64,000 nt of DNA from Escherichia coli (GCF_024502345.1 NZ_JALDNN010000001.1), one strand, 5' to 3'; positions 29,965 to 54,240 are shown, counted from the first letter of the stretch. Notes: generated from the letters alone by a model not told the origin. Made by a program: numbers and translations.

Positions 29965-31623
<1,659 letters not shown>

Positions 31624-31627
31624 TGAT

Positions 31628-32100
31628 GTGCCACATCCGGCATGGTATGCCGGATGTGGCGTATGCTGATAAGACGCGCCAGCGTCGCATCAGGCAACCG
31701 GCTCGGGCGTTAGATGTCGGATGCGGCGTGACCGCCTTATCCGACCTACGGGGTGGAGCACTTCACAGCGGTGTAGGCCTGATAAGACGCGTCAGCGTCG
31801 CATCAGGCAACCGGCTCGGACGTTGGATGTCGGATGCGGCGTAACCGCCTTATCCGACCTACGGGGTGGAGCACTTCACAGCGGTGTAGGCCTGATAAGA
31901 CGCGTCAGCGTCGCATCAGGCAACCGGCTCGGACGTTGGATGTCGGATGCGGCGTAACCGACTTATTCGACCTACGGGGTGGAGCACTTCACAGCGGCGT
32001 AGGCCTGATAAGACGCGTCAGCGTCGCATCAGGCAACCGGCTCGGGCGTTAGATGTCGGATGCGGCGTGACCGCCTTATCCGACCTACGGGGTGACGCAC
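31628..32100. repeat. mqo terminator hairpin followed by a tandem array of about four 113-bp BIME/REP units
   Basis: Perfect 13-bp inverted repeat ccacatccggcat/atgccggatgtgg, then a 113-bp unit (gataagacgcg.cagcgtcgcatcaggcaaccggctcgg.cgtt.gatgtcggatgcggcgt.accgccttatccgacctacggggtggagcacttcacagcgg.gtaggcct) repeated with few substitutions. Confidence 0.8.
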
Positions 32101-32111: not shown

Positions 32112-32600
32112 TTAGCGAACTACCGCGTTGTCAATTTTCTCTTCCGCCTTCCAGACGCGGTACTTCACATCTACATTGTCTGGCGTATACACCACGATCG
32201 GCAGCTTGCTGTTGTAACGCAGCATTCCAGCATCGCCCAGATACGCGGTGACAAATTTCTTCTCTTTCTTGCCATCCGGGCAGGCCATCATCGTGGAAAC
32301 CGGCGAGCTAACTTTATCAAAGACATAATAATCATAGCCCCAGCCTTCCAGCGTTTTGCTTTCCAGCTTCCCGCCGAGACGATGCAAATTGCAATCGACT
32401 TCCAGCGTCTGACCGATTAACAGTTCTACTTTCAGGGTAGATTCATCTTCTTGCGGGGTTAACTGAATCACCTGACGCTTCATGCCTTTTTCAGCTTGTG
32501 GATAAGGCGCGATTTTTTCCAGTGGCTGGACGCTCTCTGCCGCCCAGGCGGAAGTGGTGGCGAAAGCGGCAAACAATACTGCAGGTAGAATGGTCTTCAT
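32112..32600 (-). CDS. eco: ecotin, periplasmic serine protease inhibitor
   Basis: 162-aa translation [71 protein letters not shown]... Confidence 0.95.
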
Positions 32601-33006: not shown

Positions 33007-33501
33007 GTGAAGATTGATGCATCCCGTCGGGGCATACTCACTGGTCGCTGGCGCAAAGCCAGTAACGGTATCCGTCCGCCCTGGTCCGGTGATGAATCTC
33101 ATTTTCTGACCCATTGCACCCGCTGCGACGCCTGTATTAATGCTTGTGAAAACAACATTCTGCAACGCGGCGCGGGCGGCTATCCGAGCGTTAATTTCAA
33201 AAATAACGAGTGCAGCTTCTGTTACGCCTGCGCGCAGGCTTGCCCCGAATCGCTATTTTCTCCGCGCCACACCAGGGCCTGGGATTTGCAGTTCACCATT
33301 GGGGACGCGTGCCTGGCGTATCAGTCAGTTGAATGCCGCCGCTGTCAGGATAGCTGTGAGCCAATGGCAATTATCTTTCGCCCGACGCTCTCCGGGATCT
33401 ACCAGCCGCAACTTAATAGCCAACTTTGCAACGGATGTGGAGCATGTGCAGCCAGCTGTCCGGTATCAGCCATAACTGCGGAGTATCTCCATGCACACTA
33501 A
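33007..33501 (+). CDS. napF: ferredoxin-type protein NapF
   Basis: 164 aa, GTG start, multiple CxxCxxCxxxCP iron-sulfur motifs. Confidence 0.93.
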   Translation: MKIDASRRGILTGRWRKASNGIRPPWSGDESHFLTHCTRCDACINACENNILQRGAGGYPSVNFKNNECSFCYACAQACPESLFSPRHTRAWDLQFTIGDACLAYQSVECRRCQDSCEPMAIIFRPTLSGIYQPQLNSQLCNGCGACAASCPVSAITAEYLHAH

Positions 33502-33754
33502 CTGGCAAGTTTGCAGCCTGGTCGTGCAGGCCAAAAGCGAACGAATTTCAGACATCAGCACCCAACTGAACGCCTTTCCCGGCTGTGAAGTTGCTGTCAG
33601 CGACGCGCCGAGCGGTCAGTTGATTGTGGTGGTGGAAGCAGAAGACAGCGAAACGCTGATCCAAACCATTGAGTCAGTACGCAACGTAGAGGGCGTGCTG
33701 GCGGTGTCGCTGGTTTATCACCAGCAGGAAGAGCAAGGTGAGGAAACACCATGA
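33491..33754 (+). CDS. napD: NapA chaperone NapD
   Basis: 87-aa ORF overlapping napF and napA ends; [17 protein letters not shown]... Confidence 0.9.
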
Positions 33755-36237
33755 AACTCAGTCGTCGTAGCTTTATGAAAGCTAACGCCGTTGCGGCCGC
33801 TGCGGCGGCTGCCGGTCTCAGCGTGCCGGGCGTTGCCCGCGCCGTTGTTGGTCAGCAGGAAGCCATCAAATGGGATAAAGCGCCGTGCCGTTTCTGCGGT
33901 ACTGGTTGCGGCGTTCTGGTCGGAACGCAGCAGGGGCGTGTGGTGGCCTGTCAGGGCGACCCGGACGCACCGGTTAACCGTGGCCTGAACTGCATTAAGG
34001 GCTATTTCCTGCCCAAGATCATGTACGGTAAAGACCGTTTGACGCAGCCGCTGCTGCGTATGAAAAACGGTAAATATGACAAAGAAGGCGAATTTACCCC
34101 AATCACCTGGGATCAGGCCTTCGATGTGATGGAAGAGAAATTCAAAACCGCCCTGAAAGAAAAAGGGCCGGAATCGATCGGTATGTTCGGTTCTGGTCAG
34201 TGGACTATCTGGGAAGGTTATGCCGCGTCCAAGCTGTTTAAAGCGGGCTTCCGTTCGAACAACATCGACCCGAACGCGCGTCACTGTATGGCGTCGGCAG
34301 TAGTTGGCTTTATGCGTACCTTTGGTATGGATGAGCCGATGGGCTGCTATGACGACATCGAGCAGGCTGACGCGTTTGTGCTGTGGGGCGCAAACATGGC
34401 GGAGATGCACCCGATCCTCTGGTCACGCATCACTAACCGTCGTCTCTCTAACCAGGACGTCACCGTGGCGGTGCTTTCAACCTACCAGCATCGTAGCTTC
34501 GAGCTGGCGGATAACGGCATCATCTTTACGCCACAGTCTGACCTGGTGATCCTGAACTACATCGCCAACTATATCATTCAAAACAATGCGATAAATCAGG
34601 ACTTCTTCAGCAAACACGTTAACCTGCGCAAAGGGGCGACGGACATCGGCTACGGTTTACGTCCGACCCATCCGCTGGAAAAAGCAGCGAAGAATCCGGG
34701 TTCTGACGCCTCCGAACCGATGAGCTTTGAAGATTACAAAGCCTTCGTTGCTGAGTATACGCTGGAAAAAACCGCTGAAATGACCGGCGTGCCGAAAGAC
34801 CAGTTAGAACAACTGGCGCAGCTGTATGCCGATCCGAACAAGAAAGTCATATCCTACTGGACGATGGGCTTCAACCAGCATACCCGTGGTGTGTGGGCCA
34901 ACAACCTGGTCTACAACCTGCACCTGCTGACCGGCAAAATTTCCCAGCCGGGTTGCGGTCCGTTCTCCCTGACCGGGCAGCCTTCCGCGTGTGGTACTGC
35001 GCGTGAAGTGGGCACCTTTGCTCACCGTCTGCCTGCGGACATGGTGGTAACTAACGAGAAACATCGTGATATCTGCGAGAAGAAGTGGAATATCCCGAGC
35101 GGCACCATTCCGGCGAAAATCGGTCTGCATGCGGTAGCACAAGACCGTGCGCTGAAAGACGGCAAGCTGAATGTTTACTGGACCATGTGTACCAACAACA
35201 TGCAGGCCGGGCCGAACATCAATGAAGAGCGTATGCCGGGCTGGCGCGATCCGCGCAACTTCATCATCGTCTCCGATCCGTATCCGACAGTCAGTGCGCT
35301 GGCCGCCGACTTGATCCTGCCGACCGCAATGTGGGTAGAGAAAGAGGGCGCTTACGGTAACGCCGAACGCCGTACTCAGTTCTGGCGTCAGCAGGTACAG
35401 GCGCCAGGCGAAGCGAAATCGGATCTCTGGCAGTTAGTCCAGTTCTCCCGCCGCTTCAAAACTGAAGAAGTATGGCCGGAAGAGCTGCTGGCGAAGAAAC
35501 CGGAACTGCGTGGCAAAACGCTGTACGAAGTTCTGTATGCCACCCCCGAAGTGAGCAAATTCCCGGTATCCGAACTGGCGGAAGATCAGCTGAACGATGA
35601 ATCCCGCGAGCTGGGCTTCTATCTGCAAAAAGGGCTGTTCGAAGAGTACGCATGGTTTGGTCGCGGTCACGGTCACGATCTCGCGCCGTTCGATGACTAC
35701 CACAAAGCGCGCGGTCTGCGCTGGCCGGTGGTGAACGGTAAAGAAACGCAGTGGCGTTACAGCGAAGGTAACGACCCGTACGTGAAAGCGGGCGAAGGCT
35801 ATAAGTTCTACGGTAAACCGGATGGTAAAGCGGTGATCTTCGCGCTGCCGTTCGAACCGGCGGCGGAAGCACCGGATGAAGAGTACGACCTGTGGCTCTC
35901 TACCGGACGCGTCCTGGAGCACTGGCACACCGGCAGTATGACTCGCCGTGTGCCGGAACTGCACCGTGCCTTCCCGGAAGCGGTCCTGTTTATTCACCCG
36001 CTGGATGCGAAAGCGCGCGATCTGCGCCGTGGCGACAAAGTGAAAGTGGTTTCTCGCCGTGGCGAAGTGATCTCGATTGTCGAAACGCGCGGTCGTAACC
36101 GTCCGCCGCAGGGCCTGGTGTACATGCCGTTCTTCGACGCCGCACAGCTGGTTAACAAACTAACGCTGGACGCGACCGATCCGCTCTCGAAAGAGACGGA
36201 CTTCAAGAAGTGCGCGGTCAAACTGGAGAAGGTGTAA
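33751..36237 (+). CDS. napA: periplasmic nitrate reductase catalytic subunit
   Basis: 828 aa; twin-arginine signal [20 protein letters not shown]; N-terminal 4Fe-4S Cys cluster; molybdopterin oxidoreductase length. Confidence 0.98.
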
Positions 36238-36243
36238 GCCATT

Positions 36244-36939
36244 ATGTCCCGGTCAGCGAAACCTCAAAATGGTCGCCGCCGCTTTCTGCGCGATGTCGTT
36301 CGCACAGCAGGCGGGCTGGCTGCCGTGGGTGTGGCGCTGGGGTTACAACAGCAAACCGCACGCGCATCTGGCGTGCGGTTGCGCCCGCCCGGAGCCATAA
36401 ACGAGAACGCCTTTGCCAGTGCCTGTGTGCGTTGCGGTCAGTGTGTTCAGGCTTGCCCTTACGACACCTTAAAACTGGCGACGCTGGCCTCTGGCCTGTC
36501 GGCGGGCACGCCATATTTTGTCGCACGGGATATTCCTTGCGAAATGTGTGAGGACATTCCGTGCGCCAAAGTGTGCCCGAGCGGTGCGCTGGATCGTGAG
36601 ATTGAATCGATCGACGACGCGCGGATGGGGCTGGCGGTACTGGTGGACCAGGAAAACTGTCTCAACTTTCAGGGGCTGCGCTGCGATGTTTGTTATCGCG
36701 AATGCCCGAAAATTGATGAGGCCATCACCCTGGAGCTGGAGCGCAACACGCGTACCGGTAAGCACGCCCGCTTTCTGCCGACGGTTCACAGCGACGCCTG
36801 TACCGGTTGCGGTAAGTGCGAAAAAGTATGCGTGCTGGAACAACCGGCAATCAAGGTGTTACCGCTGTCACTGGCGAAAGGGGAGTTAGGTCACCATTAC
36901 CGCTTCGGCTGGCTGGAGGGGAACAATGGCAAATCGTAA
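36244..36939 (+). CDS. napG: ferredoxin-type protein NapG
   Basis: 231 aa with Tat-like signal RRRFLRD and four Fe-S Cys clusters. Confidence 0.94.
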
Positions 36940-37789
36940 ACGTGACGCCGGGCGCGAGGCGCTGGAGAAAAAAGGCTGGTGGCGCAGTCACCGTTGGCTG
37001 GTGTTACGTCGCCTTTGTCAGTTCTTCGTGCTGGGGATGTTTTTGAGCGGTCCGTGGTTTGGTGTGTGGATCTTGCACGGCAACTACAGCAGTAGCCTGT
37101 TATTCGACACCGTTCCGCTGACCGATCCGCTGATGACGCTGCAAAGTCTTGCCAGTGGTCATCTGCCTGCCACGGTGGCGTTGACCGGTGCGGTGATTAT
37201 CACCGTGCTCTACGCCCTGGCAGGAAAGCGATTATTTTGCAGCTGGGTCTGCCCGCTGAACCCGATTACCGACTTAGCGAACTGGTTACGCAGGCGCTTT
37301 GACCTCAATCAGTCTGCGACGATCCCTCGCCACATTCGCTACGTGCTGTTGGTGGTCATTCTGGTGGGATCTGCCTTAACTGGCACGCTCATCTGGGAAT
37401 GGATCAACCCCGTTTCCCTGATGGGGCGTAGCCTGGTAATGGGCTTCGGCAGCGGCGCGCTGCTTATTCTCGCGCTGTTTTTATTTGATCTACTGGTCGT
37501 TGAACACGGCTGGTGCGGGCACATTTGTCCGGTTGGCGCGCTGTATGGCGTGCTGGGTAGCAAAGGTGTGATTACCGTTGCGGCCAGCGATCGGCAGAAA
37601 TGTAACCGCTGTATGGATTGTTTTCATGTTTGCCCGGAACCGCATGTGCTACGTGCCCCGGTGCTGGATGAACAAAGCCCGGTGCAGGTCACCAGCCGCG
37701 ATTGCATGACGTGCGGTCGCTGCGTGGATGTCTGTTCTGAGGATGTATTTACAATAACTACACGATGGAGTTCGGGAGCGAAATCATGA
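36926..37789 (+). CDS. napH: membrane ferredoxin-type protein NapH
   Basis: 287 aa, TM segments plus C-terminal CxxCxxC motifs. Confidence 0.94.
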
Positions 37790-38229
37790 AAAGCCATGAC
37801 CTGAAGAAAGCGCTGTGTCAATGGACGGCGATGCTGGCCCTGGTGGTAAGCGGCGCGGTTTGGGCGGCTAATGGCGTCGATTTTAGCCAGTCGCCGGAAG
37901 TATCCGGGACGCAGGAAGGGGCCATTCGGATGCCAAAAGAGCAGGATCGGATGCCGCTGAACTATGTGAATCAGCCGCCAATGATCCCGCATAGCGTTGA
38001 AGGTTATCAGGTAACGACCAATACCAACCGCTGCTTGCAGTGCCACGGTGTCGAAAGCTATCGCACCACTGGCGCGCCGCGTATCAGTCCTACTCACTTT
38101 ATGGACAGCGACGGCAAAGTGGGCGCGGAAGTGGCTCCGCGTCGTTATTTCTGTCTGCAATGTCACGTACCGCAGGCCGATACCGCGCCAATCGTGGGGA
38201 ATACCTTTACCCCATCAAATACCGAATGA
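37786..38229 (+). CDS. napB: periplasmic nitrate reductase dihaem cytochrome c subunit; final codons appear replaced at the prophage junction
   Basis: [27 protein letters not shown]... with two CxxCH motifs (CLQCH x2); ends ...NTFTPSNTE whereas the remembered reference ends ...TPSKGYGK. Confidence 0.88.
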   Translation: MKSHDLKKALCQWTAMLALVVSGAVWAANGVDFSQSPEVSGTQEGAIRMPKEQDRMPLNYVNQPPMIPHSVEGYQVTTNTNRCLQCHGVESYRTTGAPRISPTHFMDSDGKVGAEVAPRRYFCLQCHVPQADTAPIVGNTFTPSNTE

Positions 38230-38671
38230 AGTGGACTATCGAAAATTGCAGGAACTGTTCACGCGGATCGCCATCGATAAACATATTCAGCAAAAGCTTG
38301 AACATCCTCACCACCAGCTGGTGGCTACCTACCAGTCATTAAACCGCAAGTATTCAGAATTGCTGGAGGAATACAAAATCCTTCGGCGCTGCTTCTCTGT
38401 TTCCGCTCTTGTTCCTTATACCGACGTATGGACACATAAGCCTGTTCAGTTTTATCCAGGCAAACATCCATGCGAAAAACCTGCCGACATGCTGAAACAG
38501 ATCATTAGCGCCAGCAGCAGACCGGGGGATATCGTTGCCGATTTCTTTATGGGCTCTGGTTCAACTGTGAAAGCTGCAATAGAACTTGGCCGTCGGGCGA
38601 TCGGCGTAGAACTGGAGGCAGACAGGTTTATACAGACCACCGAAGAGGTGGAAAAACTGAAAAAATCATAA
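38219..38671 (+). pseudogene. 5'-truncated phage DNA N6-adenine/N4-cytosine methyltransferase (C-terminal fragment only)
   Basis: HPCEKP and DIVADFFMGSGSTVKAAIELGRRAIGVELE (FxGxG SAM-binding motif I) present; no DPPY catalytic motif and no in-frame start after the napB junction. Confidence 0.6.
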
Positions 38672-38816
38672 CGATCACCACGCTCCCCCGTTGCTGTGGT
38701 GATCACCATCTTCAGGCACCGGGAATCATCCTTAATTTTTACTTGAACATAAGAGCCCGGTTGCCTGATCCCCTTCAATCACACACAGCGCCATCCGAAC
38801 TATCGGAGGTGAGGCT

Positions 38817-39095
38817 ATGACCAGAATGAGCACCATTTACAGCAGACTTTCATATGGATCAGGAACCACGCTTGCCGGCTGCGGTGTATCAGCGAAGGCA
38901 TATGCCGAAACAGCTAAAACAGCAAAAGAGGTGTCCTGGATGTTGGCCGACAGAATTGCAGGGTTAAGCCTGAGTGACTGGGCAATTATTGTCGGTATCG
39001 CATGCACAGTTATCACCTGTGCAGTGAACTGGTATTACAGGAAAAAGGAAAGGGAGGACCGGCTTAATGGCAATGTCACCAAAGCAGAAGAATAA
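38817..39095 (+). CDS. putative holin (pinholin-like, possible dual start MTRM)
   Basis: 92-aa ORF with strong RBS ggaggtga, hydrophobic TM segment WAIIVGIACTVITCAVNWYY and charged C-terminus; directly upstream of the endolysin. Confidence 0.6.
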   Translation: MTRMSTIYSRLSYGSGTTLAGCGVSAKAYAETAKTAKEVSWMLADRIAGLSLSDWAIIVGIACTVITCAVNWYYRKKEREDRLNGNVTKAEE

Positions 39096-39615
39096 ACTGA
39101 GCGCAGCGGTCGTTGGGTTAATTCTTGCCGGGGCTTCCGCACCCGTGATTCTCGATCAGTTTCTGGATGAGAAAGAGGGTAACAGCACAACAGCGTACAA
39201 GGACGGCTCTGGTATATGGACCATTTGTCGTGGCGCTACGATGGTTGATGGCAAGCCAGTAGTTCAGGGCATGAAGCTGTCTGCTGAGAAATGTTCCAAG
39301 GTGAACGCCATAGAACGCGACAAGGCGCTGGCGTGGGTCGAGCGAAACATCAAGGTGCCACTGACCGAACCACAGAAAGCCGGGATCGCGTCTTTCTGCC
39401 CATATAACATCGGTCCCGGAAAATGTTTCCCATCTACGTTCTATAAGCGAATAAATGCTGGCGACCGTGAAGGTGCCTGTGAAGCGATCCGCTGGTGGAT
39501 AAAAGACGGTGGTCGCGATTGTCGTCTGACCAAAGGGCAGAAGAACGGTTGCTATGGTCAGGTTGAACGGCGAGACCAGGAAAGCGCGTTGACGTGCTGG
39601 GGGATAGACCAGTGA
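39067..39615 (+). CDS. SAR endolysin (T4-lysozyme-like muramidase with N-terminal signal-anchor-release domain)
   Basis: N-terminal [19 protein letters not shown] hydrophobic segment followed by the E-x8-D-x5-T catalytic triad context ([20 protein letters not shown]). Confidence 0.85.
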
Positions 39616-40127
39616 GCCTGCGCTATCAGTTCATTGTTATTTTGTTGCTGGTGGCCGTTGCATTCTTCGCGGGTAGTGTATGGAGCAGCCGCGGTTGGGA
39701 AAAGAAGTGGGCCGAGCGTGACAGCGTAGAATCATCGCAAACAGCGAACGCACAGACCGCCGCTCGCATGATTGAACAAGGGCGTATTATTGCCCGTGAT
39801 GAGGCTGTAAAAGATGCACAAGCACAAGCCGCTAAATCCGCTGCCACTGCTGCTGGCCTGTCTGCCACTGTTAACCAGCTGCGTACCGAAGCAACAAAGC
39901 TTGCCACTCGCCTGGACGCCGCAAAGCACACCGCAGATCTTGCCACTGCCGTCAGAAGCAAAACAGCCGGAGCCGACGCCGCAGTGCTCGCCGACATGCT
40001 CGGACGCCTTGCAGAAGAAGCTCGATATTATGCTGAGCGATCTGACGAAAGCTACCGGGCAGGAATGACGTGTGAGCGCATTTACGACTCAGTGAGGCAG
40101 TCAAACAACAACAGGGTTAGAAGATGA
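39594..40127 (+). CDS. i-spanin Rz
   Basis: N-terminal TM ([15 protein letters not shown]) plus coiled-coil Ala/Gln-rich periplasmic domain; overlaps the endolysin end; contains the embedded Rz1 frame. Confidence 0.75.
39814..40068 (+). CDS. o-spanin Rz1 (lipoprotein) embedded in the +1 frame of Rz
   Basis: Signal peptide with lipobox-like LLTSC, then a Pro-rich mature region; entirely inside Rz. Confidence 0.65.
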
Positions 40128-40354
40128 ACGCAGAAAACCTAAGTGAAGCGTATTACCTCAATAACGATATAAAAGAACTACAACTTCAGAAAAGCATACT
40201 GGAAAGTGGTGCCGGACTTGGTGTGACAATCCAGTCTACCTATCAGGATAACGCCTTTCTTGATGCCATACGCCCGCATGCAGTGGCTGAACTTGATCGC
40301 CGTATTGTGGAGAAGAAAAAAAACCTCTCCACTCTGGGTGTTACATTCTCTTAA
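40124..40354 (+). CDS. hypothetical small prophage protein (76 aa)
   Basis: ORF starting 4 nt before the Rz stop (translational coupling); no recognisable motif. Confidence 0.35.
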
Positions 40355-40738
40355 ATGAGAACAACAATAAAAGGTTATGTCTGCTTTGCCACATTCTGAG
40401 AGTATGAGTTTTATTTGGTAGTCAATCAGTTACTTTATTGGTTTGCTTTCCGATGGAAGATAGATGTTTCCACAGAAGGGGCAAATTAACGTTATATTGT
40501 TTTTTATTCTCGACAGACTGTGCTTTGACTGGCGGGAGCAATGAGGACAAGTACTTTTCACATGGCGTAAAGTACGCATCTTGATATCTTTGAGTATCGA
40601 CATGTTGATTGTCCTGGTGGGCGGTTAACAACCATACACCACATGTTGGCTAATAGCTTCTTTTATAACCGTTACGATGTAGTCGTTAGCCATAATCAAT
40701 CAAGCCTCGCAATAGCGGGGCTTTTTAACAACTGAGGA

Positions 40739-40942
40739 ATGAGCATTACAGTAGTTCTTACAGCTAAGCAGATTGAAGACCTGGCTGCCTTCGCAAAAGA
40801 AGATGGCCAGCCACAATATACCATCACTACCGGAACAATCCCTGAGTTCGAAGCGGATGATGGCGAGGTTATCCCTGAGTACACCGGGCTGATTGCCTAT
40901 TCCGAGTCGCTAGAGCATAGCGTTCTACAGCTCGATAACTAA
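40739..40942 (+). CDS. hypothetical small acidic prophage protein (67 aa); a degenerate paralogue lies at about 42.78-42.96 kb
   Basis: ORF with the motif F-E-ADDG-x-I-P-x-Y-TGL; a similar C-terminal fragment (FDADDGTLSPNTLGLL...) recurs at 42823-42962. Confidence 0.35.
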   Translation: MSITVVLTAKQIEDLAAFAKEDGQPQYTITTGTIPEFEADDGEVIPEYTGLIAYSESLEHSVLQLDN

Positions 40943-40989
40943 CGAATCAACATAACTTTCCATCCGCCATGACACCACAATGCTCGTAG

Positions 40990-41110
40990 ACATGCCAGGA
41001 AGCCTGGCAGAAGAAGCTCGATACCATGCTGAACGCGCTGATGAAAACTACCGAGCAGGAATGACATGTGAGCGGATTTATGAGTCCGTAAAAATACTAA
41101 CAATGAACCG
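40990..41110 (+). pseudogene. remnant 3' end of a second Rz/Rz1 spanin gene
   Basis: Translates to ...[29 protein letters not shown]..., about 80 percent identical to the Rz C-terminus at 40000-40127; no upstream gene body. Confidence 0.6.
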
Positions 41111-41129
41111 TAGAGGAAAAATAATAGCT

Positions 41130-41514
41130 CTATAAATTAAGATGTTGACGGTTTTCGTGGATAAATTTGTGAATTTTTACTATGAAGGAAATACGACTCT
41201 TCCTTGAGTCAAAATCCCTGACAACTTAGGGTGATAGATAAAGGTCTTACGCAGCATGACATAATTTTCGATTTAAGCTATTTAAATTAATTTTTAAGAT
41301 CAAAACCCACTGAGATTTACTTACAAAACTAAACCTTGCTATGTCTGGTTAATCATGCGTTAATGAATGTCTGGTTTGTAACGAATTTATCTGAAGCAGT
41401 CGCTGTAATAATTTTATTCCTTGTTCCTGTTGAGATTTCCTTGTTAGCTTTTCTCTCTGATAAATTTTTTTCGGACCATTCTGCCCAAGGGCTTACTCAA
41501 TAAAGGTAATGTTT
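41130..41514 (+). promoter_or_regulatory. long AT-rich leader/promoter region upstream of the cold-shock gene
   Basis: About 380 bp AT-rich non-coding sequence before csp, as is typical of the long 5' UTRs of cspA-family genes. Confidence 0.35.
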
Positions 41515-41727
41515 ATGTCTAATAAAATGACTGGTTTAGTTAAATGGTTTAATCCTGAAAAAGGTTTTGGTTTTATCACTCCAAAAGATGGTAGTAAAGA
41601 TGTGTTTGTTCACTTCTCTGCTATCCAGAGTAATGATTTCAAGACGTTGAATGAGAATCAGGAAGTTGAATTTAGTGTTGAACAGGGACCTAAAGGCCCC
41701 ACGGCAGTTAATGTCGTGGCTGTATAA
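41515..41727 (+). CDS. cold-shock protein, CspA family (prophage-borne, CspB/CspI-like)
   Basis: [70 protein letters not shown] with RNP1/RNP2 motifs. Confidence 0.9.
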
Positions 41728-41931
41728 GGTAACTGTTATTACTAATAATATTCACTTCAGATGTCCGTGTTGCCACGGATCTCAGTACCGAACGTCAAAC
41801 TTTGATGTTACTGAAAAAAATCCTTTCGGAGCAAAATGTATTTTTTGCAAATCAACAATGATTACATTTGATAATATTGCACTGTACATTCGTTCTGGTC
41901 AGTCTTCGTTAGAATTCAGAAAATAAATTTC

Positions 41932-41953
41932 AGGCTCCTTATGGAGCCTTTTT
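41932..41953 (+). terminator. intrinsic terminator
   Basis: aggctcc-ttat-ggagcct hairpin followed by ttttt. Confidence 0.6.
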
Positions 41954-41999
41954 TGTATGCTGAACCGACAATCTCTGTAAGAGACATCACGGTAAAATT

Positions 42000-42230
42000 A
42001 TGAAAAAAGTCATCGTTTTTTTTAATGCAGAACCAGCAGTTGTTGTAACCGTAATGAAAGGTATTACTACGATAATGCGTGAGTTTCCCAATGGGGAAAA
42101 AGCACACCTACCCGTGATGTCAGCGGGATTTCCATCTCTGACAGGAGACCATAAAATAGTTTATGTAGCCTCTGATCGTGATGTCAGTTCAGAAGAGATC
42201 CTCGAGGCAGCCTCGAAGCTTTTGAAATGA
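42000..42230 (+). CDS. YmcE-like small protein (76 aa)
   Basis: 76-aa ORF immediately upstream of a gnsA/B-like gene, the same arrangement and size as ymcE-gnsA in K-12; identity not verified. Confidence 0.4.
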   Translation: MKKVIVFFNAEPAVVVTVMKGITTIMREFPNGEKAHLPVMSAGFPSLTGDHKIVYVASDRDVSSEEILEAASKLLK

Positions 42231-42434
42231 GATCTGGTTGTTTCGTGACCGACCCGGATTTTAGTACAGTGGTTTGTGTGGTCGCGAGCTCTTTTGCATG
42301 AAGATTGTACTGCAAACTATTGATAATTGAGTCTTTCTATTCTATCTTTTAAACATATCAGCGCTTATACAAGTGCTCTACGGGGAATGTAACATGCCTG
42401 GCGTTGATACGTTAGAGATCAAGAGAGGTAAACA

Positions 42435-42608
42435 ATGAACGTCGAAGATTTAAAAAGAAAAACTGAAGCGGATATTTCTGAATTCATCACAAAAAAAATT
42501 ATTGAACTCAAAAAAAAGACAGGAAAAGAAGTTTCCGATATCCAGTTTAATGCTCGTGAAAAAATGACTGGGCTTGAAAGCTATGATATTAAAATCACAT
42601 TAATCTAA
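42435..42608 (+). CDS. GnsA/GnsB-family protein (57 aa; below the ORF-track size cutoff)
   Basis: Manual translation MNVEDLKRKTEADISEFITKKIIELKKKTGKEVSDIQFNAREKMTGLESYDIKITLI, close to remembered GnsA/GnsB sequences. Confidence 0.8.
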   Translation: MNVEDLKRKTEADISEFITKKIIELKKKTGKEVSDIQFNAREKMTGLESYDIKITLI

Positions 42609-43049
42609 TTGTTATAAGACTCAGTTCGAGTGAAAAAGCATTATCTTGAAAGGTAATGCTTTTTTATTTCTGTCATAAAATTTAGAACGTTGTCAAAGCC
42701 TTCACTTCTAACCACAGATTTTCTGCTTACCTTTTAACGGGTCCTCCTTGACGATTCTGACCATCGAGGGGCAGCAGCGGCGCGGGATTTGGAGCATTTT
42801 TGATTCTTCACGCAACCATTTCAGCATTTGATGCTGATGACGGAACACTATCCCCGAATACACTGGGTTTGTTGCATTCTCTGATTCAAAAGAACACGGT
42901 GTGCTTCAACTTGGCTGAGCAGGCATTACAGCAGACATTCACTGAGTGCCTGCGACAAAGTTAAATGGCATCAAGCATGCGATGATGATTGATTAATAAT
43001 TGAGCTATGCATGGTATAATAAGCCCCATTCATTGAAAGGTTAACCACC

Positions 43050-43214
43050 ATGTCATTTTTCGATTATGCAATGCAGCGTGTTGGGCTTGCAGCCAATACG
43101 ACTGTCATGTGCCCGATATGCGGACATAAATCCACACACTCGACCACGAAAGTACGCCAACAACAGGCGTTACTTTGCCCTAAATGTAAATCGCTGTTTG
43201 TCATTCACAGATAA
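43050..43214 (+). CDS. hypothetical small zinc-ribbon protein (about 54 aa; below track cutoff)
   Basis: Manual translation MSFFDYAMQRVGLAANTTVMCPICGHKSTHSTTKVRQQQALLCPKCKSLFVIHR with CPxCG...CPKC; followed by terminator hairpins. Confidence 0.3.
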   Translation: MSFFDYAMQRVGLAANTTVMCPICGHKSTHSTTKVRQQQALLCPKCKSLFVIHR

Positions 43215-43233
43215 CATGCGACCTGCTGAATAT

Positions 43234-43256
43234 AACCGCCTACGGGCGGTTTTTTA
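43234..43256 (+). terminator. intrinsic terminator (a second hairpin gccactttcgagtggc + T-run follows at about 43271-43293)
   Basis: ccgcc-tacg-ggcgg hairpin followed by tttttt. Confidence 0.6.
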
Positions 43257-43370
43257 TTGCCATCACAAAGGCCACTTTCGAGTGGCTTTTTTAATGGTCA
43301 TCACGACGGGTATTACAGCAGGAATTACTGAGTGCCTGCGATAATGCTCAATATTTTTATCGGAGTGAAT

Positions 43371-43559
43371 ATGCCACCGCGCACACCGAAGGCCGGCCTG
43401 AAAGGGGCGATACAAAAAAGGGAAAAAATGAAAAGACATAAGCGAAATAAAAAAGCCACCACATCTGCAAATGTGATGGCTGGCATTCGGATTAATTCAG
43501 GTTGGCTGAATAAGTTAGCCGCAGATATTACTAAAATAATTAATGAAGCATGTCCCTAA
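43371..43559 (+). CDS. hypothetical small highly basic protein (62 aa)
   Basis: ggag RBS 5 nt before the ATG; translation MPPRTPKAGLKGAIQKREKMKRHKRNKKATTSANVMAGIRINSGWLNKLAADITKIINEACP. Confidence 0.35.
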   Translation: MPPRTPKAGLKGAIQKREKMKRHKRNKKATTSANVMAGIRINSGWLNKLAADITKIINEACP

Positions 43560-43947
43560 TCTCATCTGAGATATCTCTTGGCCCTGCAGGCTGAGGCGCA
43601 ACCAACCGGGTCGGAAGTCTCTCGAAGAAACCACCACCACCATGATGATGAAAACCCCGGTTATTTTTATAACTATTGAAGTTACTGTCGGTAGTGAGAA
43701 GGATGTTGCACTGGTGCGAGCAGTCAACAACAACGACATCACCTGCATTCAGGTGCATTCGTTTGTGAAGAAATTGCATAAGTCTCCTTATCAAGAGGCA
43801 ATCAGCACTCCTCTCAAGGCTGGTACGCCAACGTCCCACCGCTGACGGGCTGAGCCATTACCTTACCCAGACTCAACGATAAGTAACATCCTGATATTCA
43901 GACAGTAACTGTAATCGATAATGCTGAAGAATAGGCAGTAAATACAG

Positions 43948-44595
43948 GTGACTGATATGGCAACACTGAAGGATTTATCAAACCAGTTAAAGCAACTGCA
44001 AAAGCAAATCCCGTTTGCCACAGCTCAGGCGATGACAAAAGTTGTACGCCAGATTGAGTTGGCTCAGAAGACGGCATTCGAACGACATCTGGAGAGCCCC
44101 ACGCCGTTTACCGTTAAATCAGTTGGTTCGGTGGCGGCAAGAAAGAACAATCTGACCGCAAAGGTTTTTGTCCGTGATACCGCTGCTGGTTATCTGGAAC
44201 CATTCGAGTTTGGCGGAGAGCACAAGCTCAATAGCCAGGCTCTATTAAATCCCAAGAACGTTAAGCTAAACAAATACGGCAACATGCCGCGTAATAAGCT
44301 CTCACAGCTTAAAGCAAAGGAAAATGTATTCGTAGGTGAGGTTGATGGCGTTAACGCTGTCTGGCAGCGTAAGAAGCCGATGAAAGCTAAGAAGCGACGG
44401 GCCAAACGTTCCGCTAACGGGACGCGAAGACCGAAACGCAAACAGCGTTCTCCAAAGCTTTTGATCCGGTTTGGTGATGCGCTACCTGTGACTCCAGTGC
44501 TGGGGTATATGGATAGGGCCCGTACCATGGCGAACGCACTGCTACCGTCTGCTTTAAATCAGGCGATAGCAGAAGCCATCAGGACGGCAAAATAA
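43948..44595 (+). CDS. hypothetical prophage protein (215 aa) with Lys/Arg-rich segment
   Basis: ORF with a central basic tract KKPMKAKKRRAKRSANGTRRPKRKQRSPK; no recognisable catalytic motif. Confidence 0.45.
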   Translation: MTDMATLKDLSNQLKQLQKQIPFATAQAMTKVVRQIELAQKTAFERHLESPTPFTVKSVGSVAARKNNLTAKVFVRDTAAGYLEPFEFGGEHKLNSQALLNPKNVKLNKYGNMPRNKLSQLKAKENVFVGEVDGVNAVWQRKKPMKAKKRRAKRSANGTRRPKRKQRSPKLLIRFGDALPVTPVLGYMDRARTMANALLPSALNQAIAEAIRTAK

Positions 44596-44605
44596 AAGCA
44601 GTAAC

Positions 44606-45109
44606 TTATAAGTTAATTTCGCAAGCTTTTATGAAGCTGTTTACTGCAGTTGTCGATCCAGAAACATTGGCTGACATGGAATGCTGGTTTCCGCCATCCT
44701 TTGTTTGCACACCAACTAACACTTTGGATTTCGCCCCCTGAAGCTGCTTAAGCACTGTTTTCAGTTGGTCCGTGTCATCCGATTGAATCTGGAGGCTCTG
44801 AACATTACGTCTTGAAAGGGTAGCATCGAGCTTCACTGCGGTATTCCCGTCGACCTTCATTATCAGGTCCATTGGTACCTCTGATAGTGATTCGGTGCTT
44901 TTATCCATTTCAACGTATGCCGCCGATAGCTTTTCTTTAGTGCAGTCAAACACAATGGCGCCATTGTCGGATGAAACCTCGCCAAGCATCATTGCTTTCT
45001 TACCACCAGAGAAAAGGTCATCTTCAGTATTAGTTACCCACTGGGCATGAGCAATTGGTGATGCCAGCACTGCGGCTACGAAAGTTATTTTGATTATATT
45101 GTTACCCAT
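44606..45109 (-). CDS. secreted/periplasmic protein, moron-like, opposite strand to the phage late genes
   Basis: Signal peptide MGNNIIKITFVAAVLASPIAHA then a soluble domain; convergent with the neighbouring phage genes (Bor-like placement, but no lipobox). Confidence 0.5.
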   Translation of the reverse strand: MGNNIIKITFVAAVLASPIAHAQWVTNTEDDLFSGGKKAMMLGEVSSDNGAIVFDCTKEKLSAAYVEMDKSTESLSEVPMDLIMKVDGNTAVKLDATLSRRNVQSLQIQSDDTDQLKTVLKQLQGAKSKVLVGVQTKDGGNQHSMSANVSGSTTAVNSFIKACEINL

Positions 45110-45253
45110 TACATTCTCCTTGTATTGAATAGGAATAATCATAGTCGGAGCGAATGGTCGAAGCCATTAAAAAAATGGGTCCTTCCTGAGACTTTTGTAA
45201 GGCACGGGCATTGCGCGCCGCGGTGTTTTCCTAGCTACAACTTTCAGATTTGT

Positions 45254-45402
45254 GTCCCATGTCCCACCTCTGGCGATCATTACGGACACCTCGCCAGCTC
45301 TGGCTATTCCAGTTTATTCCAGTGGGACATTCTGGTGGGACATGGCAAAAATGTCCCAGGCGAATGTCCCACCCCAGAAAATGTCCCAGGTGATGTCCCA
45401 TG
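45254..45402. promoter_or_regulatory. array of 8 copies of (A)TGTCCCA, 6 direct and 2 inverted; putative cosB-type binding sites
   Basis: Motif at 45254, 45261, 45322 (inverted), 45335 (inverted), 45351, 45364, 45381 and 45393, the last overlapping the terminase small-subunit ATG; GC-rich gcgcgccgcgg lies just upstream (about 45212-45225). Confidence 0.45.
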
Positions 45403-45969
45403 ACCACGATGAACCAGAGTCAGTACGCACAACATTCAGGTGTGGATCGCAAAACAATTGGTCGGTGGATTAAAGCCGGGCGCTTCATTGTGATGGACGG
45501 AGACCTGATTGACGTAGAGGCCAGCGATGCGGCATTGAAGAAAAACCGCGATGGCAAAGACCCGCGCGCCTCGAACGCGAAGAAAAAGAAAACTCCCGTC
45601 GTTAGCGATAACGATGATGACGGTGATGAAATCAATAAAACTGTCCGCCAGATAATGCTCACTGAAGGGGCAGATCTTTCGAGAGAGGAAGCGGGACGTA
45701 TCCGCGAGAATTACATGGCCCTGCAGGCAAAGCTGCAGTATGAAAAAGACAGCGGCCAGCTTATTGAGCTGACAGCAGCCGAGGAGGTTTTATTCAACGC
45801 CTTTCGCCAACAGCGTGATGCCTGGCTTAACTGGCCGTCCAGGGTGGCGCCGCTAATGGCTGCTGATCTGGATGTACCGGCGGACAGGATGACAGAGGTG
45901 CTGATTGAACATGTCCACAAACACATCTCAGTCCTCGGAGAGCCAGAGTTTAACCCGGCAGAAGATTGA
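45400..45969 (+). CDS. terminase small subunit (lambda Nu1-like)
   Basis: N-terminal winged-helix region (RKTIGRWIKAG) and C-terminal resemblance to lambda Nu1; immediately upstream of the large subunit. Confidence 0.75.
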   Translation: MTTMNQSQYAQHSGVDRKTIGRWIKAGRFIVMDGDLIDVEASDAALKKNRDGKDPRASNAKKKKTPVVSDNDDDGDEINKTVRQIMLTEGADLSREEAGRIRENYMALQAKLQYEKDSGQLIELTAAEEVLFNAFRQQRDAWLNWPSRVAPLMAADLDVPADRMTEVLIEHVHKHISVLGEPEFNPAED

Positions 45970-48034
45970 GCGTCTTGAATTAAGCGTCCGCAAAGGCTGG
46001 ACACCCCCGCCGCGTATCAGTGTGCCGCAGTGGGCAGATGACTATCGTAAGCTGGCAAAAGAGGCTGGGAGCACTTCGGGAAACTGGGAAACATCGACGG
46101 TAGAAATTGCCCGCGGACCGATGCTTGCCGCGACGGAGTCCGGGGTTCATATCATCACTGTAATGTGCTGTACCCAGTTGATGAAGACAGCACTGCTGGA
46201 AAACCTTTTTGGCTATTTTGCCCACCTCGATCCTTGTCCGATACTGCTGCTGCAGCCGAAAGAAGAAGCCGCTGAACAGTTTTCGAAAGAGCGTATTAGC
46301 CCGCTGGTAAGGGTGACGCCGGTACTGCGTAAAATCATCGGTGATTCGAAACAGAAAAGCTCGAAAGAAACCATTCTTTACAAGGCATTCACTGGCGGAT
46401 TTCTGGCGCTGGCGGGTGCTGGTAGCCCTGATAACCTTGCGCGTCGTCCGATTCGTGTCCTGCTGGCGGATGAAGTGGACAAGTACCCGATAACCCGCGA
46501 AGGCGATCCAATTGCGCTGGCCGAAGAGCGTACAGCGACATTTGGCCTGACCTGGCTGTCTGTACGCGCCTGTTCGCCGACGGTGGAGGATGAGAGCCGC
46601 ATTGCTGACAGCTACGCCGACTCCGATCAGCGCCGGGCATCTGTGGTTTGCCCGCACTGTGGCCACCGCCAGTTCCCCGACTTTTTCAAACACGTTCAGT
46701 GGCCGAAAGAGGGAGATAAACACCTGACTAAATCGGCGATGCTCTATTGCGAATGCTGTGGTAGTGGCTGGTCCGAAGGACAGCGCCTCAGAGCTCTGCA
46801 CACTATTCGATGGCATCAGACGCGCCCATTTGAGTGCTGCGGGGAGCGGCACTCACCGCTGATGGATTATGACCTTGCCTGGCGGGCGGCAGACGAGGGC
46901 AGCGTTGAAAAGGTCTGGCAATGGTCAGAGTCGGAACGGCATGCGGTCTATCGCGCAATCTGCCCCTCCTGTGGAAAGGAGGCAGTCGATAACCACCACG
47001 CGGGGTACCAGGCATCCAAGCTTTTCAGCCCCTGGCAAAAAGATAAGCCGTCGGATATTGCGAAAAAATATATCGATGCGAAGGGCGATCCGGATAAGGA
47101 ACAGGCGTGGTGGAATACCCAGATGGGGCTTCCGCACCGACCTAATCATGGGAAACAGCTCCCTGTTGATGTTCTGCTGGCGCGCCGGGAAATATTTCCG
47201 GCCGTCGTTCCGGACGGGGTGGCATTGTTAACAGCTGGAGTTGATACCCAGGACGATCGCTTCGAAATTACGATCACCGGCTGGGGGAGAGATGAAGAAT
47301 CGTGGTCGGTCGCGCATGACGTTATTTATGGTGACCTTGAGACGGAAGAACCCTGGAAGCGACTGGATGCATACCTGAAACAGATCTGGCGACGTGGTGA
47401 CGGGCGCGGCCTGAATATCATGGCAACGTGCATGGACTCCGGTGGCCACCATACGCAGAAGGTATACGAATTCGCCAAAGAGCGTCTTGGCCGTCGTGTC
47501 TGGGCAATTAAGGGGGAGTCTGCACAGGGAGGTAAACGCAATCCTGTCTGGCCGACCAAACGACCATCATCGAAAAGCAAAGCCAGTTTCCGCCCTGTCA
47601 TTCTGGGGGTTAACTCAGCGAAAGACGTGATACGCGGTCGCCTGCATCTTGAGCCACCCAAACCTGGCGCCGCCGCTGCGGGTTATATGCATTTTCCTGA
47701 CGATCGCGATCTCGGGTACTTCAATCAGCTGCTGGCGGAGCGACTGGTTTACAAAGTCATTTCCGGGCAGCGGTACAGTATCTGGGAAGCAATACCAGGA
47801 CGAGCTAACGAAGCGCTTGACTGCCTCGTTTACAGCTATGCCGCGCTGTGCGGTCTCAAACATATGGGGTTAAAACTCAACGTCCGGGCCGCCAACCTCG
47901 AAGCCGATCCGGATAAGTTCCTGCCAGCGCCAGTTGGACAGGAAGAAAAAATCAATTACGAGCTGCCGGGTGCGGTTATTGAAGAACCAGCGCCGGTCAA
48001 ACGTAAGCGAATATCGCAACTCCTGCCGAAATAA
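45905..48034 (+). CDS. terminase large subunit (lambda gpA-like)
   Basis: 709 aa; conserved blocks shared with lambda gpA (VPQWADDYRKL, CPHCGHRQF, LTAGVDTQDDRFEITITGWG, ATCMDSGGHHT, NEALDCLVYSYAA). Confidence 0.9.
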   Translation: MNMSTNTSQSSESQSLTRQKIERLELSVRKGWTPPPRISVPQWADDYRKLAKEAGSTSGNWETSTVEIARGPMLAATESGVHIITVMCCTQLMKTALLENLFGYFAHLDPCPILLLQPKEEAAEQFSKERISPLVRVTPVLRKIIGDSKQKSSKETILYKAFTGGFLALAGAGSPDNLARRPIRVLLADEVDKYPITREGDPIALAEERTATFGLTWLSVRACSPTVEDESRIADSYADSDQRRASVVCPHCGHRQFPDFFKHVQWPKEGDKHLTKSAMLYCECCGSGWSEGQRLRALHTIRWHQTRPFECCGERHSPLMDYDLAWRAADEGSVEKVWQWSESERHAVYRAICPSCGKEAVDNHHAGYQASKLFSPWQKDKPSDIAKKYIDAKGDPDKEQAWWNTQMGLPHRPNHGKQLPVDVLLARREIFPAVVPDGVALLTAGVDTQDDRFEITITGWGRDEESWSVAHDVIYGDLETEEPWKRLDAYLKQIWRRGDGRGLNIMATCMDSGGHHTQKVYEFAKERLGRRVWAIKGESAQGGKRNPVWPTKRPSSKSKASFRPVILGVNSAKDVIRGRLHLEPPKPGAAAAGYMHFPDDRDLGYFNQLLAERLVYKVISGQRYSIWEAIPGRANEALDCLVYSYAALCGLKHMGLKLNVRAANLEADPDKFLPAPVGQEEKINYELPGAVIEEPAPVKRKRISQLLPK

Positions 48035-48042
48035 GGAAAATC

Positions 48043-48306
48043 ATGTTCAACCGGAACACCAGCCTGCTTGCCGGCGCAATGACTGACGATCAGCTCAGGG
48101 ATGCGCTTGCGAAAGCTCAGCAGGCGTACATTGATTTAGCAACCGGGAGCCACGGTGTTTCGTTTTCCTATACGCAGGGAGACGGGACGCGATCAGTGTC
48201 CTATCAGCAAAGCACCCTGGCTGATCTGCTGGCCCTGATTCAACTTCTGCAGGCGCAACTGGGGATTATCTCTCGTCCCCGGAAACCAGCGAGGTTTAGA
48301 TTCTGA
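48043..48306 (+). CDS. head-tail joining protein (gpW-like)
   Basis: 87-aa ORF between terminase and portal, the same size and position as lambda W. Confidence 0.6.
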   Translation: MFNRNTSLLAGAMTDDQLRDALAKAQQAYIDLATGSHGVSFSYTQGDGTRSVSYQQSTLADLLALIQLLQAQLGIISRPRKPARFRF

Positions 48307-49943
48307 TGAATAAAGTACAGATACTGGGCTCTGATGGGCAGCCGTTGCGACAGCAGCGTCCCTCTATGCTGGTGGGGGGGAGCCGCGTACCTTATGACGC
48401 AGCTGACTCTTTCAGCGATCAACTGGCGAACTGGCAACCCGCGCTGTGGTCCCCGGACAATGAAATTAACATTTACCGGGATCGCATCGTGTCCCGCGCA
48501 CGCGATCTGGTCCGTAATGACGGCTGGGCAAACGGTGCGGTCACACGTCTGCTGGATAATGCGGTTGGTGCCAACTTCCGCCCCATCATGAAACCCGATT
48601 ACCGTGTTCTCAGAATGATCACCGGAAACAAGGCGTTTGATGCGTCCTGGGCGGAAGAGTACGGAAAAGCACTGGACGGGCACTGGCGGACCTGGAGTAA
48701 CGATCCTGGCCGGTATTGTGATGTTGAACGAAAACTCACCGTGTCGCAGATGTTACGCCTGGGATTTCGTCACAAGCTTATTGACGGGGATGCTCTGGCC
48801 ATTCTCCAGTACAGAACTGACAGGCTTGGTCCCGGAAGAGGGCGTTACGCCACCACGGTACAGATTGTCGATCCTGACCGCCTCAGTAATCCTCAGCAGA
48901 ATTTCGATATGCCAAATGTCCGTGGTGGCGTTGAAATTGATGCGGACGGTGCGCCGGTTGCTTACCACATCAGGGAGGCCCATATCGGTGACTGGTGGAG
49001 CGGGGCTAAAACCATGACGTGGCAGCGTATCCCGCGTGAAACTGACTGGGGCCGCCCGCATGTGGTTCACGATTTTGATCATGAGCGTGGCGCGCAGCAC
49101 CGTGGTAACGGCATCCTGACTCCGGTTATTCAGCGTCTGAAAATGCTGGTGAAGTATGACCAGAGTGAGCTTGAGGCAGCAATTCTTAATGCCATATTTG
49201 CCGCTTACATTGAGTCACCCTATGACCCTGCGATGGTTCAGTCTGCCCTGGGCGAGACCTATGACGAGTCGGAGTTAGGCACTTATCAGGACGGGCGTGT
49301 TGAGTTCCATAACGATCGGCGTCTGACACTTCAGAATGGTGCCCGAATGCCCATTCTTTATCCTGGTGAGAAAATCACGACGGTTAACGCGGCGCGGCCC
49401 TACAGCAATTTTGAAGTCTTCGAATCTGCTGTTCTCCGTAATTTTTCTTCAGGAACAGGGTTGTCCCCACAGCAGGTCACCCAGGACTGGTCTGACGTTA
49501 ACTACAGTTCTGCACGCTCCTCGTTGCTGGAGGCATGGAAAACACTGACTCGCCGCCGGGACGATTTTTCTACCGGCTTCGCTCAGCCCATTCTCACCGC
49601 CTTTGTTGAAGAAGTTCACGACAATGAGGATTTACCCCTGCCCGCAGGCGCACCTGATTTTGTTGACGCCAGAGCCGCGTATTCTCGCGCGCGCTGGATG
49701 GGGCCAGGGCGCGGCTGGGTGGATCCGGTTGCAGAGAAAAAAGGCGCCATTCTTGGTCTGGATGCCGGACTTTCCACCCTCGAGATTGAGGTGGGTGAAA
49801 ACGTCGGTGAAGACTGGGAAGAAGTGCTTGATCAGCGCCAGAGAGAAATTGAGTCATGTCTTAAACGCGGATTACCGCTTCCGAGCTGGGCACAGGCTGA
49901 CCAGTTTGCGAGCCAGACCATTACCGATCCGGAGGAAAAGTGA
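48306..49943 (+). CDS. portal protein (lambda gpB-like)
   Basis: 545-aa ORF following gpW, upstream of an S49-type protease. Confidence 0.8.
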   Translation: MNKVQILGSDGQPLRQQRPSMLVGGSRVPYDAADSFSDQLANWQPALWSPDNEINIYRDRIVSRARDLVRNDGWANGAVTRLLDNAVGANFRPIMKPDYRVLRMITGNKAFDASWAEEYGKALDGHWRTWSNDPGRYCDVERKLTVSQMLRLGFRHKLIDGDALAILQYRTDRLGPGRGRYATTVQIVDPDRLSNPQQNFDMPNVRGGVEIDADGAPVAYHIREAHIGDWWSGAKTMTWQRIPRETDWGRPHVVHDFDHERGAQHRGNGILTPVIQRLKMLVKYDQSELEAAILNAIFAAYIESPYDPAMVQSALGETYDESELGTYQDGRVEFHNDRRLTLQNGARMPILYPGEKITTVNAARPYSNFEVFESAVLRNFSSGTGLSPQQVTQDWSDVNYSSARSSLLEAWKTLTRRRDDFSTGFAQPILTAFVEEVHDNEDLPLPAGAPDFVDARAAYSRARWMGPGRGWVDPVAEKKGAILGLDAGLSTLEIEVGENVGEDWEEVLDQRQREIESCLKRGLPLPSWAQADQFASQTITDPEEK

Positions 49944-50806: not shown

Positions 50807-50807
50807 A

Positions 50808-51398
50808 ATGGCAAAGAAAAAGACGTTTAGTTTTGCTCACCTCATTGGTCTTGGCCCTTCCGCTTCTGAGGAAGAAGAGGATAAAAAAGCCAAAAAAGCG
50901 AAAGCCCGTCGCGCGGAAGAGGACGAGCGCGAAGATGATGCCGATGATGATGAGCGCGACGACGACGCGGAAGAAGACGAACGCGACGATGATGCTGAAG
51001 ATGACGGCGATGATCCGGATGCGTCAGAAGATGATGATTCTGAAGACGACGGCGACGACGATCGCAAAGAGAGTAAGGCGGTAAAAAATGCACGCGCTGC
51101 TGAGCGTAAACGCTGCGCCCGTATTTTCGGCAGTAAGCATGCAGCTGCGAATCCTTCACTGGCCGCGTCACTGGCTTTCAATACCGGGATGAGTTCTGCG
51201 GCAGCAATTAATGTCCTAGCCTCTTCGGCTCCGGCCGCAGCCGCATCTCAGCCATCCCGTAAACGCTCTCTCGATCAGCGTATGCAGGAAAGCCACCAGG
51301 TCCGGCTTAATCCGGATAGCGGACAGAAAGAGACCGGAAAGTCTGCGCTGGTAAGTAAAATGACCGGCCTCTACAACTCCACAAGAGGAGAGAAATAA
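50808..51398 (+). CDS. acidic low-complexity head protein (possible scaffold)
   Basis: aggag RBS; Asp/Glu-rich repeats (EDEREDDADDDERDDDAEEDERDDDAEDDGDD) then an Ala/Ser-rich tail; sits between protease and decoration/capsid genes. Confidence 0.5.
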   Translation: MAKKKTFSFAHLIGLGPSASEEEEDKKAKKAKARRAEEDEREDDADDDERDDDAEEDERDDDAEDDGDDPDASEDDDSEDDGDDDRKESKAVKNARAAERKRCARIFGSKHAAANPSLAASLAFNTGMSSAAAINVLASSAPAAAASQPSRKRSLDQRMQESHQVRLNPDSGQKETGKSALVSKMTGLYNSTRGEK

Positions 51399-52949: not shown

Positions 52950-52950
52950 T

Positions 52951-53331: not shown

Positions 53332-53335
53332 TGAC

Positions 53336-54237: not shown

Positions 54238-54240
54238 TCC

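Follow-up and report, generated by a model that had tools for sequence, protein, structure and literature searches.

A junction between napB and a truncated phage methyltransferase gene in Escherichia coli, probably left by a deletion that removed one arm of a prophage and adjacent host genes

The grounding of a prophage by a deletion that takes neighbouring host genes with it is a well-known process and belongs to routine prophage decay. The cryptic or defective prophages Rac, DLP12, Qin and e14 of E. coli K-12, and the classical lambda-prophage deletions with one end in a flanking host gene, resemble the locus described here, as we propose to read it, in the loss of one prophage arm with a non-inducible element as the outcome, and the lambda deletions also remove adjacent host genes. 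They differ from it in that the event proposed here would be very recent, with flanks ~99.9–100% identical to intact relatives, in that the remaining 25 kb of late region is undamaged, and in that the presumed host loss includes the whole ccm operon.

Among the closest known systems are prophages that occupy the tRNA-Pro gene (proL). That of ECONIH4 and its surroundings read ccmC...ccmH, narP, yejO, attL, two small genes, int, early genes, cI, Q, a 350-aa methyltransferase gene, lysis, head, tail, invertase, DinI, tRNA-Pro and yejM, and the same site and order recur in ST536, EC09, SZQ1, CX21 and others; the proL integrase adjoins yejO-narP-ccm in 10/10 contexts listed. Like the DNA studied here, the prophages of ECONIH4, ST536/EC09, SZQ1 and CX21 carry a methyltransferase gene (350 aa, PF01555) followed by holin, lysozyme, Rz, terminase, head and tail genes, and in ECONIH4 and ST536 the head-tail module is shared with it at 98.9–99.8% and lies just beyond nap-ccm-narP-yejO in matching orientation. 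Unlike it, they have Q and small ORFs ahead of the methyltransferase gene and are complete, attL, int, the immunity genes and Q included, whereas in the present locus nothing of the phage remains ahead of methyltransferase codon 201; at DNA level, their alleles of the methyltransferase and lysis genes are ~75–80% identical to it. In ECONIH4 yejO is disrupted by IS2 (L021 5380–9307) and in SZQ1 (L043) it has an internal stop, and the gene seems commonly to decay beside the proL att site. A literature search on proL/yejO prophages found nothing relevant.

A further group of relatives is integrated at yecE, in Nissle 1917, 027_SK3 and GCA_902166445.1. Their methyltransferase and holin genes are 99.9% identical to those found here, and in GCA_902166445.1 the stretch from methyltransferase through cargo and terminase to portal is 99.92% identical. 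Unlike the present locus, these prophages are full length and integrated ~0.35 Mb away, at yecE, and those of Nissle and 027_SK3 have a siphovirus-type late region.

The locus lies in a 64,000-nt stretch of E. coli DNA, hereafter the window, in which chromosomal DNA gives way to phage DNA within napB. Two contigs are used repeatedly for comparison, L006 (GCA_902166445.1 contig CABHKF010000004.1) and L008 (a contig of Logan SRR33442710). The features of the window are as follows.

1–38219: ordinary E. coli chromosome, gene order rcsC, rcsB/D, ompC, apbE, ada, alkB, yojI, mqo, eco, napF, D, A, G, H, B
29977–31623: mqo
32112–32600, minus strand: eco
33007–37789, plus strand: intact napF, napD, napA, napG and napH (full-length ORFs; 99.8–99.9% identical to the nap genes of C 236-04A and 19SZHZ869Rt)
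37786–38229, plus strand: napB with an altered 3' end, codons 1–144 native, then N-T-E-stop from phage DNA
38219/38220: novel junction, ...CCATCAAA / TACCGAATG..., last nap base 38219 and first phage base 38220 (alignment and megablast end points)
38220–38671, plus strand: 3' fragment (codons 201–350) of a beta-class N6/N4 DNA methyltransferase gene, a pseudogene remnant (alignment and Pfam)
38673–38704, plus strand: strong, GC-rich hairpin (GATCACCAC...GTGGTGATC) between the methyltransferase and holin genes, not followed by a U tract
38817–40127, plus strand: lysis cassette, with holin (38817–39095), lysozyme (39067–39615) and a DUF2514 Rz-like protein (39594–40127)
40124–45142: small cargo ORFs, 99.9% identical to L006 and L008, among them a minus-strand gene of 178 aa
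41509–41727: CspA-family cold-shock gene in the cargo block
42435–42608: GnsA/B-like gene in the cargo block
43948–44595: PHROG 'minor tail protein' in the cargo block
45400–64000, plus strand: intact late region running off the window end (full-length ORFs; alignments to ECONIH4 and NCTC_13148)

Over the 25 kb up to 38219, the closest backbones are strains C 236-04A and 19SZHZ869Rt, with 99.9% and 99.8% identity to the window, and the ORF calls give nap products of normal length (NapF 164 aa, NapD 87, NapA 828, NapG 231, NapH 287). An earlier sequence-only reading of this DNA had described napFDAGHB as intact up to the last codons of napB, the NapB end as deviating from the reference, and napC as no longer following, and in all three respects it was right. 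NapB equals the reference over residues 1–144 and keeps both of its CxxCH haem motifs (CLQCH), while its final five residues (KGYGK) are swapped for three (NTE), giving ...TFTPSNTE-stop in the window vs ...TFTPSKGYGK-stop in the closest-backbone reference. Protein look-up with either of two possible starts of this altered NapB returned no exact record, and its maturation would depend on ccm, genes that the window does not contain. The gene directly after napB is not napC; alignment places the methyltransferase fragment there. Further upstream, tandem REP/BIME-like units in the mqo-eco spacer (31620–32100) give rise to overlapping look-alike ORFs (…RRIRQPAR.LDVGCGVT.LSDLRG…), and alignments to other strains split into several pieces at this cluster.

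A four-way alignment resolves the join to a single base. Identity to reference napB stops at 38219 (...CCCCATCAAA) and identity to the intact phage methyltransferase gene begins at 38220 (TACCGAATGAAG...). Across the join the window reads ...ACCCCATCAAA / TACCGAATGAAG..., where reference napB-napC has ...ACCCCATCAAA AGGTTACGGGAAATAAG and the intact methyltransferase genes of L006 and L008 have ...CCAATGGCAAC TACCGAATGAAG... at the same place. The sequence-only reading had put the start of the fragment at about 38219 and proposed aligning the region to an uninterrupted napB-napC reference; that alignment fixes the boundary at 38219/38220, exactly where it had been placed. The join cuts two coding sequences, one of the host (napB) and one of the phage (methyltransferase), and at this point the two parents share an imperfect CAA similarity only, with no usable microhomology. 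Given a join without homology, the deletion favoured below would be an event of illegitimate end-joining.

Site-specific integration leaves a different signature. No tRNA genes occur in the window, and the proL att core, a 49-bp repeat (TTTTGGTCGGCACGAGAGGATTTGAACCTCCGACCCCCGACACCCCATG) derived from both ends of the ECONIH4 prophage, has no match in it even with 3 mismatches allowed; no integrase stands beside the junction, where the methyltransferase fragment and lysis genes come next. A clean Int/att junction was rejected on the absence of att core, tRNA and adjoining integrase and on the position of the join inside two ORFs. Likewise, an IS or transposon rearrangement and a Mu-like phage end were rejected, as the phage side starts mid-gene in DNA that is continuous in relatives and no IS ORFs or terminal repeats were found near the join.

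Megablast of window 37600–38900 against 5,426 complete E. coli genomes found the junction in none of the 5,421 genomes that matched, each of which matches the nap side or the phage side. Among the matches listed, those on the nap side end at 38219, and no genome covers at least 80% of the query. The junction 34-mer has no exact match in genome_contigs and metagenome_contigs. Because not one of the 5,421 matching genomes spans it, the junction is not a chance pattern; it is previously unrecorded and a unique marker of the strain. The same uniqueness, against 5,426 complete genomes and two contig collections, also speaks for an assembly or cloning chimera, in which a nap contig was misjoined to a prophage contig: no other genome has the junction, hence there is no independent support for its biological origin, the altered NapB and methyltransferase fragment ORFs are without record as called genes, and both sides are pristine. 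However, no repeat at the join could mislead an assembler, the sequence is free of Ns, the ORFs around the join are of high quality, and a random misjoin would hardly take the form of a correctly oriented flank deletion at a real att site. We regard a chimera as very unlikely.

The phage side opens in the middle of a gene which, in its intact form in Nissle 1917 and L006, is 1,053 nt long (350 aa), with the Q region before it and the holin gene after it. The fragment begins at nt 602 of 1053, the second base of codon 201 of 350, and is identical to the Nissle and L006 proteins at 149/149 positions over residues 202–350. It keeps HPCEKP and the AdoMet-binding motif I (FMGSGS, FxGxG); the catalytic motif IV DPPY, at residues 34–37 of the intact 350-aa relative, is missing, as is the native start, 601 nt upstream of the break. 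The Pfam model PF01555 (N6_N4_Mtase) is matched at positions 132–215 of 221 by the fragment and at 1–215 by the intact protein. A C-terminal part with HPCEKP and motif I, but no DPPY and no start codon, is what had been read from the sequence, and it now corresponds to residues 201–350 of 350. The fragment is a pseudogene remnant and not a functional PF01555 member. Two plausible gene calls for it gave no exact-protein record, and a 207-aa ORF at 38048–38671 was rejected as a gene, since it reads through napB out of frame and then on into the fragment.

What follows the break is nearly indistinguishable from intact phages. Over window 38216–49615, identity is 99.99% to L008 (1 mismatch in 11.4 kb) and 99.92% to L006. 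Upstream of the shared DNA, L006 has the full methyltransferase gene, SDH protease, Q, DUF968, Ant, RusA, Dam and a cI/cro region; the L008 contig starts at the second codon of the methyltransferase gene, which is thus essentially complete there, with no upstream sequence. That contig end at the methyltransferase start suggests that the early region is repeated in the L008 sample, e.g. in two related prophages. The loss of the early region that had been proposed is supported by these 99.9% identical intact relatives, which carry the methyltransferase 5' half, Q and early genes. In the window, the methyltransferase fragment stops at 38671 and the holin gene opens 146 bp further on, at 38817; the space between holds no gene, and thus no integrase, repressor or Q, as had also been stated. 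Because the retained phage part is undamaged and essentially identical to circulating intact phages, the rearrangement is, on this comparison, recent.

The late region encodes small and large terminase, gpW, portal, S49 protease, decoration, major capsid, sheath, tube, tape measure and baseplate proteins, with a lambda-type head and a contractile tail of the Mu/e14 type. Window 45176–62059 aligns without gaps to the ECONIH4 prophage at 99.8% identity, with all annotated CDSs intact there, and window 50000–64000 is 99.9% identical to NCTC_13148. Between the lysis and packaging genes sits the cargo block 40900–43600, which as a whole has no megablast match in complete E. coli genomes; L006 and L008 contain it, and L012 has part of it, the L012 contig stopping inside the csp gene. 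Two small Cys-x2-Cys...Cys-x2-Cys ORFs are listed with it (40430–40603 on the minus strand, and 43050–43214). A 119-nt direct repeat of 82% identity (39975–40093 and 40971–41089) places a second copy of the 3' end of the DUF2514 (Rz-like) gene ~1 kb downstream; the copies bracket ORFs 40124–40354 and 40739–40942 (PHROGs with no function assigned), and the duplication looks like a moron insertion or a recombination scar.

The head-tail module, whose boundary in the window is at ~45176, occurs at three chromosomal sites: kch/yciI, the commonest (KMi029, NCTC_13148, NCTC9040), yecE (GCA_902166445.1, L006/L036, seen as far as the portal gene) and proL (ECONIH4, ST536, EC09). A near-identical module (98.9–99.9% over window 50000–64000) is thus joined to three integrase/att modules (loci L002, L003, L021/L022, L036 and L044), and SNPs in the tail module fail to separate proL copies (99.8%) from kch/yciI copies (99.9%). 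The presence of head-tail relatives at kch/yciI in KMi029, NCTC_13148 and NCTC9040, and a strand topology in the window that, reasoned from gene orders, fits a kch/yciI prophage, would be compatible with a ~1 Mb chromosomal inversion with its ends in napB and in the methyltransferase gene of such a prophage. Yet this would require a homology-free event, asymmetric about the terminus, and the kch/yciI phages examined differ in the early region, with lysis and methyltransferase alleles 77–92% identical or absent. The inversion also carries the same penalty for a coincidental position near an att site as the insertion considered below, and we hold it to be highly improbable.

The methyltransferase-lysis allele of the window was located only at yecE (Nissle, 027_SK3, GCA_902166445.1, ERZ27246995). 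No proL prophage with this exact allele was found among ECONIH4, ST536, SZQ1 and CX21, and the methyltransferase alleles of these four show ~75–77% DNA identity to the window. All located copies of the allele thus belong to yecE-integrating phages, which favours an illegitimate, Int-independent Campbell-type insertion of a whole circular phage, e.g. of the yecE type, by a crossover between its methyltransferase gene and the napB 3' end. Such an insertion would look the same as a deletion inside the window, and it is in keeping with an intact visible late region and with a phage side that hardly differs from intact phages in circulation (1 mismatch in 11.4 kb vs L008). It predicts a complete, circularly permuted prophage, with the methyltransferase 5' half, the napB tail (AGGTTACGGGAAATAA) and napC-ccm ~45–50 kb downstream; we give a low probability to a return of napC and the 5' half of the methyltransferase gene at the far prophage end. 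Against it, a very rare Int-independent integration is required, and lambdoid prophages integrated through an internal gene are, to our knowledge, essentially unreported in natural isolates. Further to that, the family has a genuine att site 10.6 kb from the break, which falls on the int side of that site and in matching orientation; the insertion would have to explain this as coincidence. We therefore consider it unlikely. A deletion from a prophage at yecE itself, the site of the window's methyltransferase allele, would have a strand topology of the deletion type, but the interval from there to napB holds argS (next to yecE) and yejM (next to proL). This interval, ~0.35 Mb on the K-12 map, also holds pgsA, metG and folE. 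The haploid loss of essential genes would be lethal, and a yecE deletion is effectively excluded on viability.

The phages of the two sites are not separate lineages in all their parts. CX21, at proL, shares 97–98% identical early and head modules with the Nissle yecE prophage, and L023, likewise at proL, has a 978-bp immunity segment that is 100% identical in phages of the Nissle type; modules therefore move between proL and yecE phages.

The explanation we favour, and consider probable, is that the junction is the scar of a single illegitimate deletion of ~26–31 kb from an ancestor that was a proL lysogen. In this ancestor, proL (tRNA-Pro) would have been occupied by a lambdoid prophage whose head was of lambda type and whose contractile tail was of Mu/e14 type, in the order napB-napC-ccmABCDEFGH-narP-yejO-attL-int-early genes-cI/cro-replication-Q-methyltransferase-lysis-head-tail-attR(proL)-yejM. 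One deletion, joining a break late in napB (codon 145) to methyltransferase codon 201, would reproduce the window exactly. Lost with it would be ~10.6 kb of host DNA, with napC, ccmA-H, narP and yejO, and, as measured on L036, L021 and L044, ~16–20 kb of phage DNA, with attL, int, the genes for immunity and replication, Q and methyltransferase codons 1–200.

Several observations point this way. One phage gene and one host gene are truncated, and in ECONIH4 and ST536, both proL lysogens, the DNA missing here forms one uninterrupted stretch. On the closest backbones the napB break is ~10.6 kb from tRNA-Pro, and the genes between (napC, ccmA-H, narP and yejO) are all non-essential. For a random rearrangement to fall so near the family's att site, on the int side and in the right orientation, our rough estimate is well under 1%. 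The sequence-only reading had likewise preferred a deletion junction in a defective prophage to a clean att site, and the two cut coding sequences, with no att core or tRNA, support that preference. Counting against a proL origin are the position of the far prophage end, expected 5–6 kb past base 64000 and so outside the window, and the state of the closest backbones, C 236-04A and 19SZHZ869Rt, which have no prophage at proL. Our confidence is not higher because the methyltransferase-lysis allele of the window has been located only in yecE prophages.

On the deletion explanation, the remaining phage genes would have no upstream promoter of their own; they now come straight after the nap operon, and no recognisable intrinsic terminator separates the two. 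A scan of 37700–39200 found no promoter-like sites and three terminator-like matches, inside napH, napB and the holin gene, which is about the chance rate; in the methyltransferase-holin spacer it found no terminator-like sites, and the 166-nt spacer region has a fold z of -4.45. With this arrangement, transcription from the nap promoter could conceivably continue into the holin gene, and Rho-dependent termination in the untranslated 590 nt would be equally plausible. We think it quite improbable, taking the two together, that the locus represents either a transcriptional fusion that sets an intact 25-kb late operon (holin, endolysin, spanin, head, contractile tail) behind napFDAGHB or an Int-independent integration of a whole phage. 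If the fusion were true, lysis and the production of particles or tailocin-like structures could come under FNR, anaerobic or nitrate control via the nap promoter.

The consequences of the deletion would be wider for host and phage alike. It had been proposed from the sequence that napC is uncoupled from the nap promoter and that periplasmic nitrate reduction is impaired; the first part stands insofar as napC does not follow napB, but if the deletion is right, napC has not been uncoupled but deleted, together with ccmABCDEFGH, narP and yejO. We infer that the prophage of this strain sat at proL, from which it would follow that napC, the sole ccm operon, narP and yejO were lost in one step, and that the prophage is unable to excise, replicate or trigger its late genes via Q. 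Such a strain would make no c-type cytochromes and would have no Nap, no formate-dependent nitrite reduction (Nrf) and no TMAO respiration via TorC and TorY, a respiratory defect much larger than the one proposed earlier. The prophage, for its part, would be locked in place, without int/xis, immunity region, replication genes, Q and late promoter, and the locus would offer a snapshot of prophage grounding in which the control arm is gone and the structural arm is still pristine.
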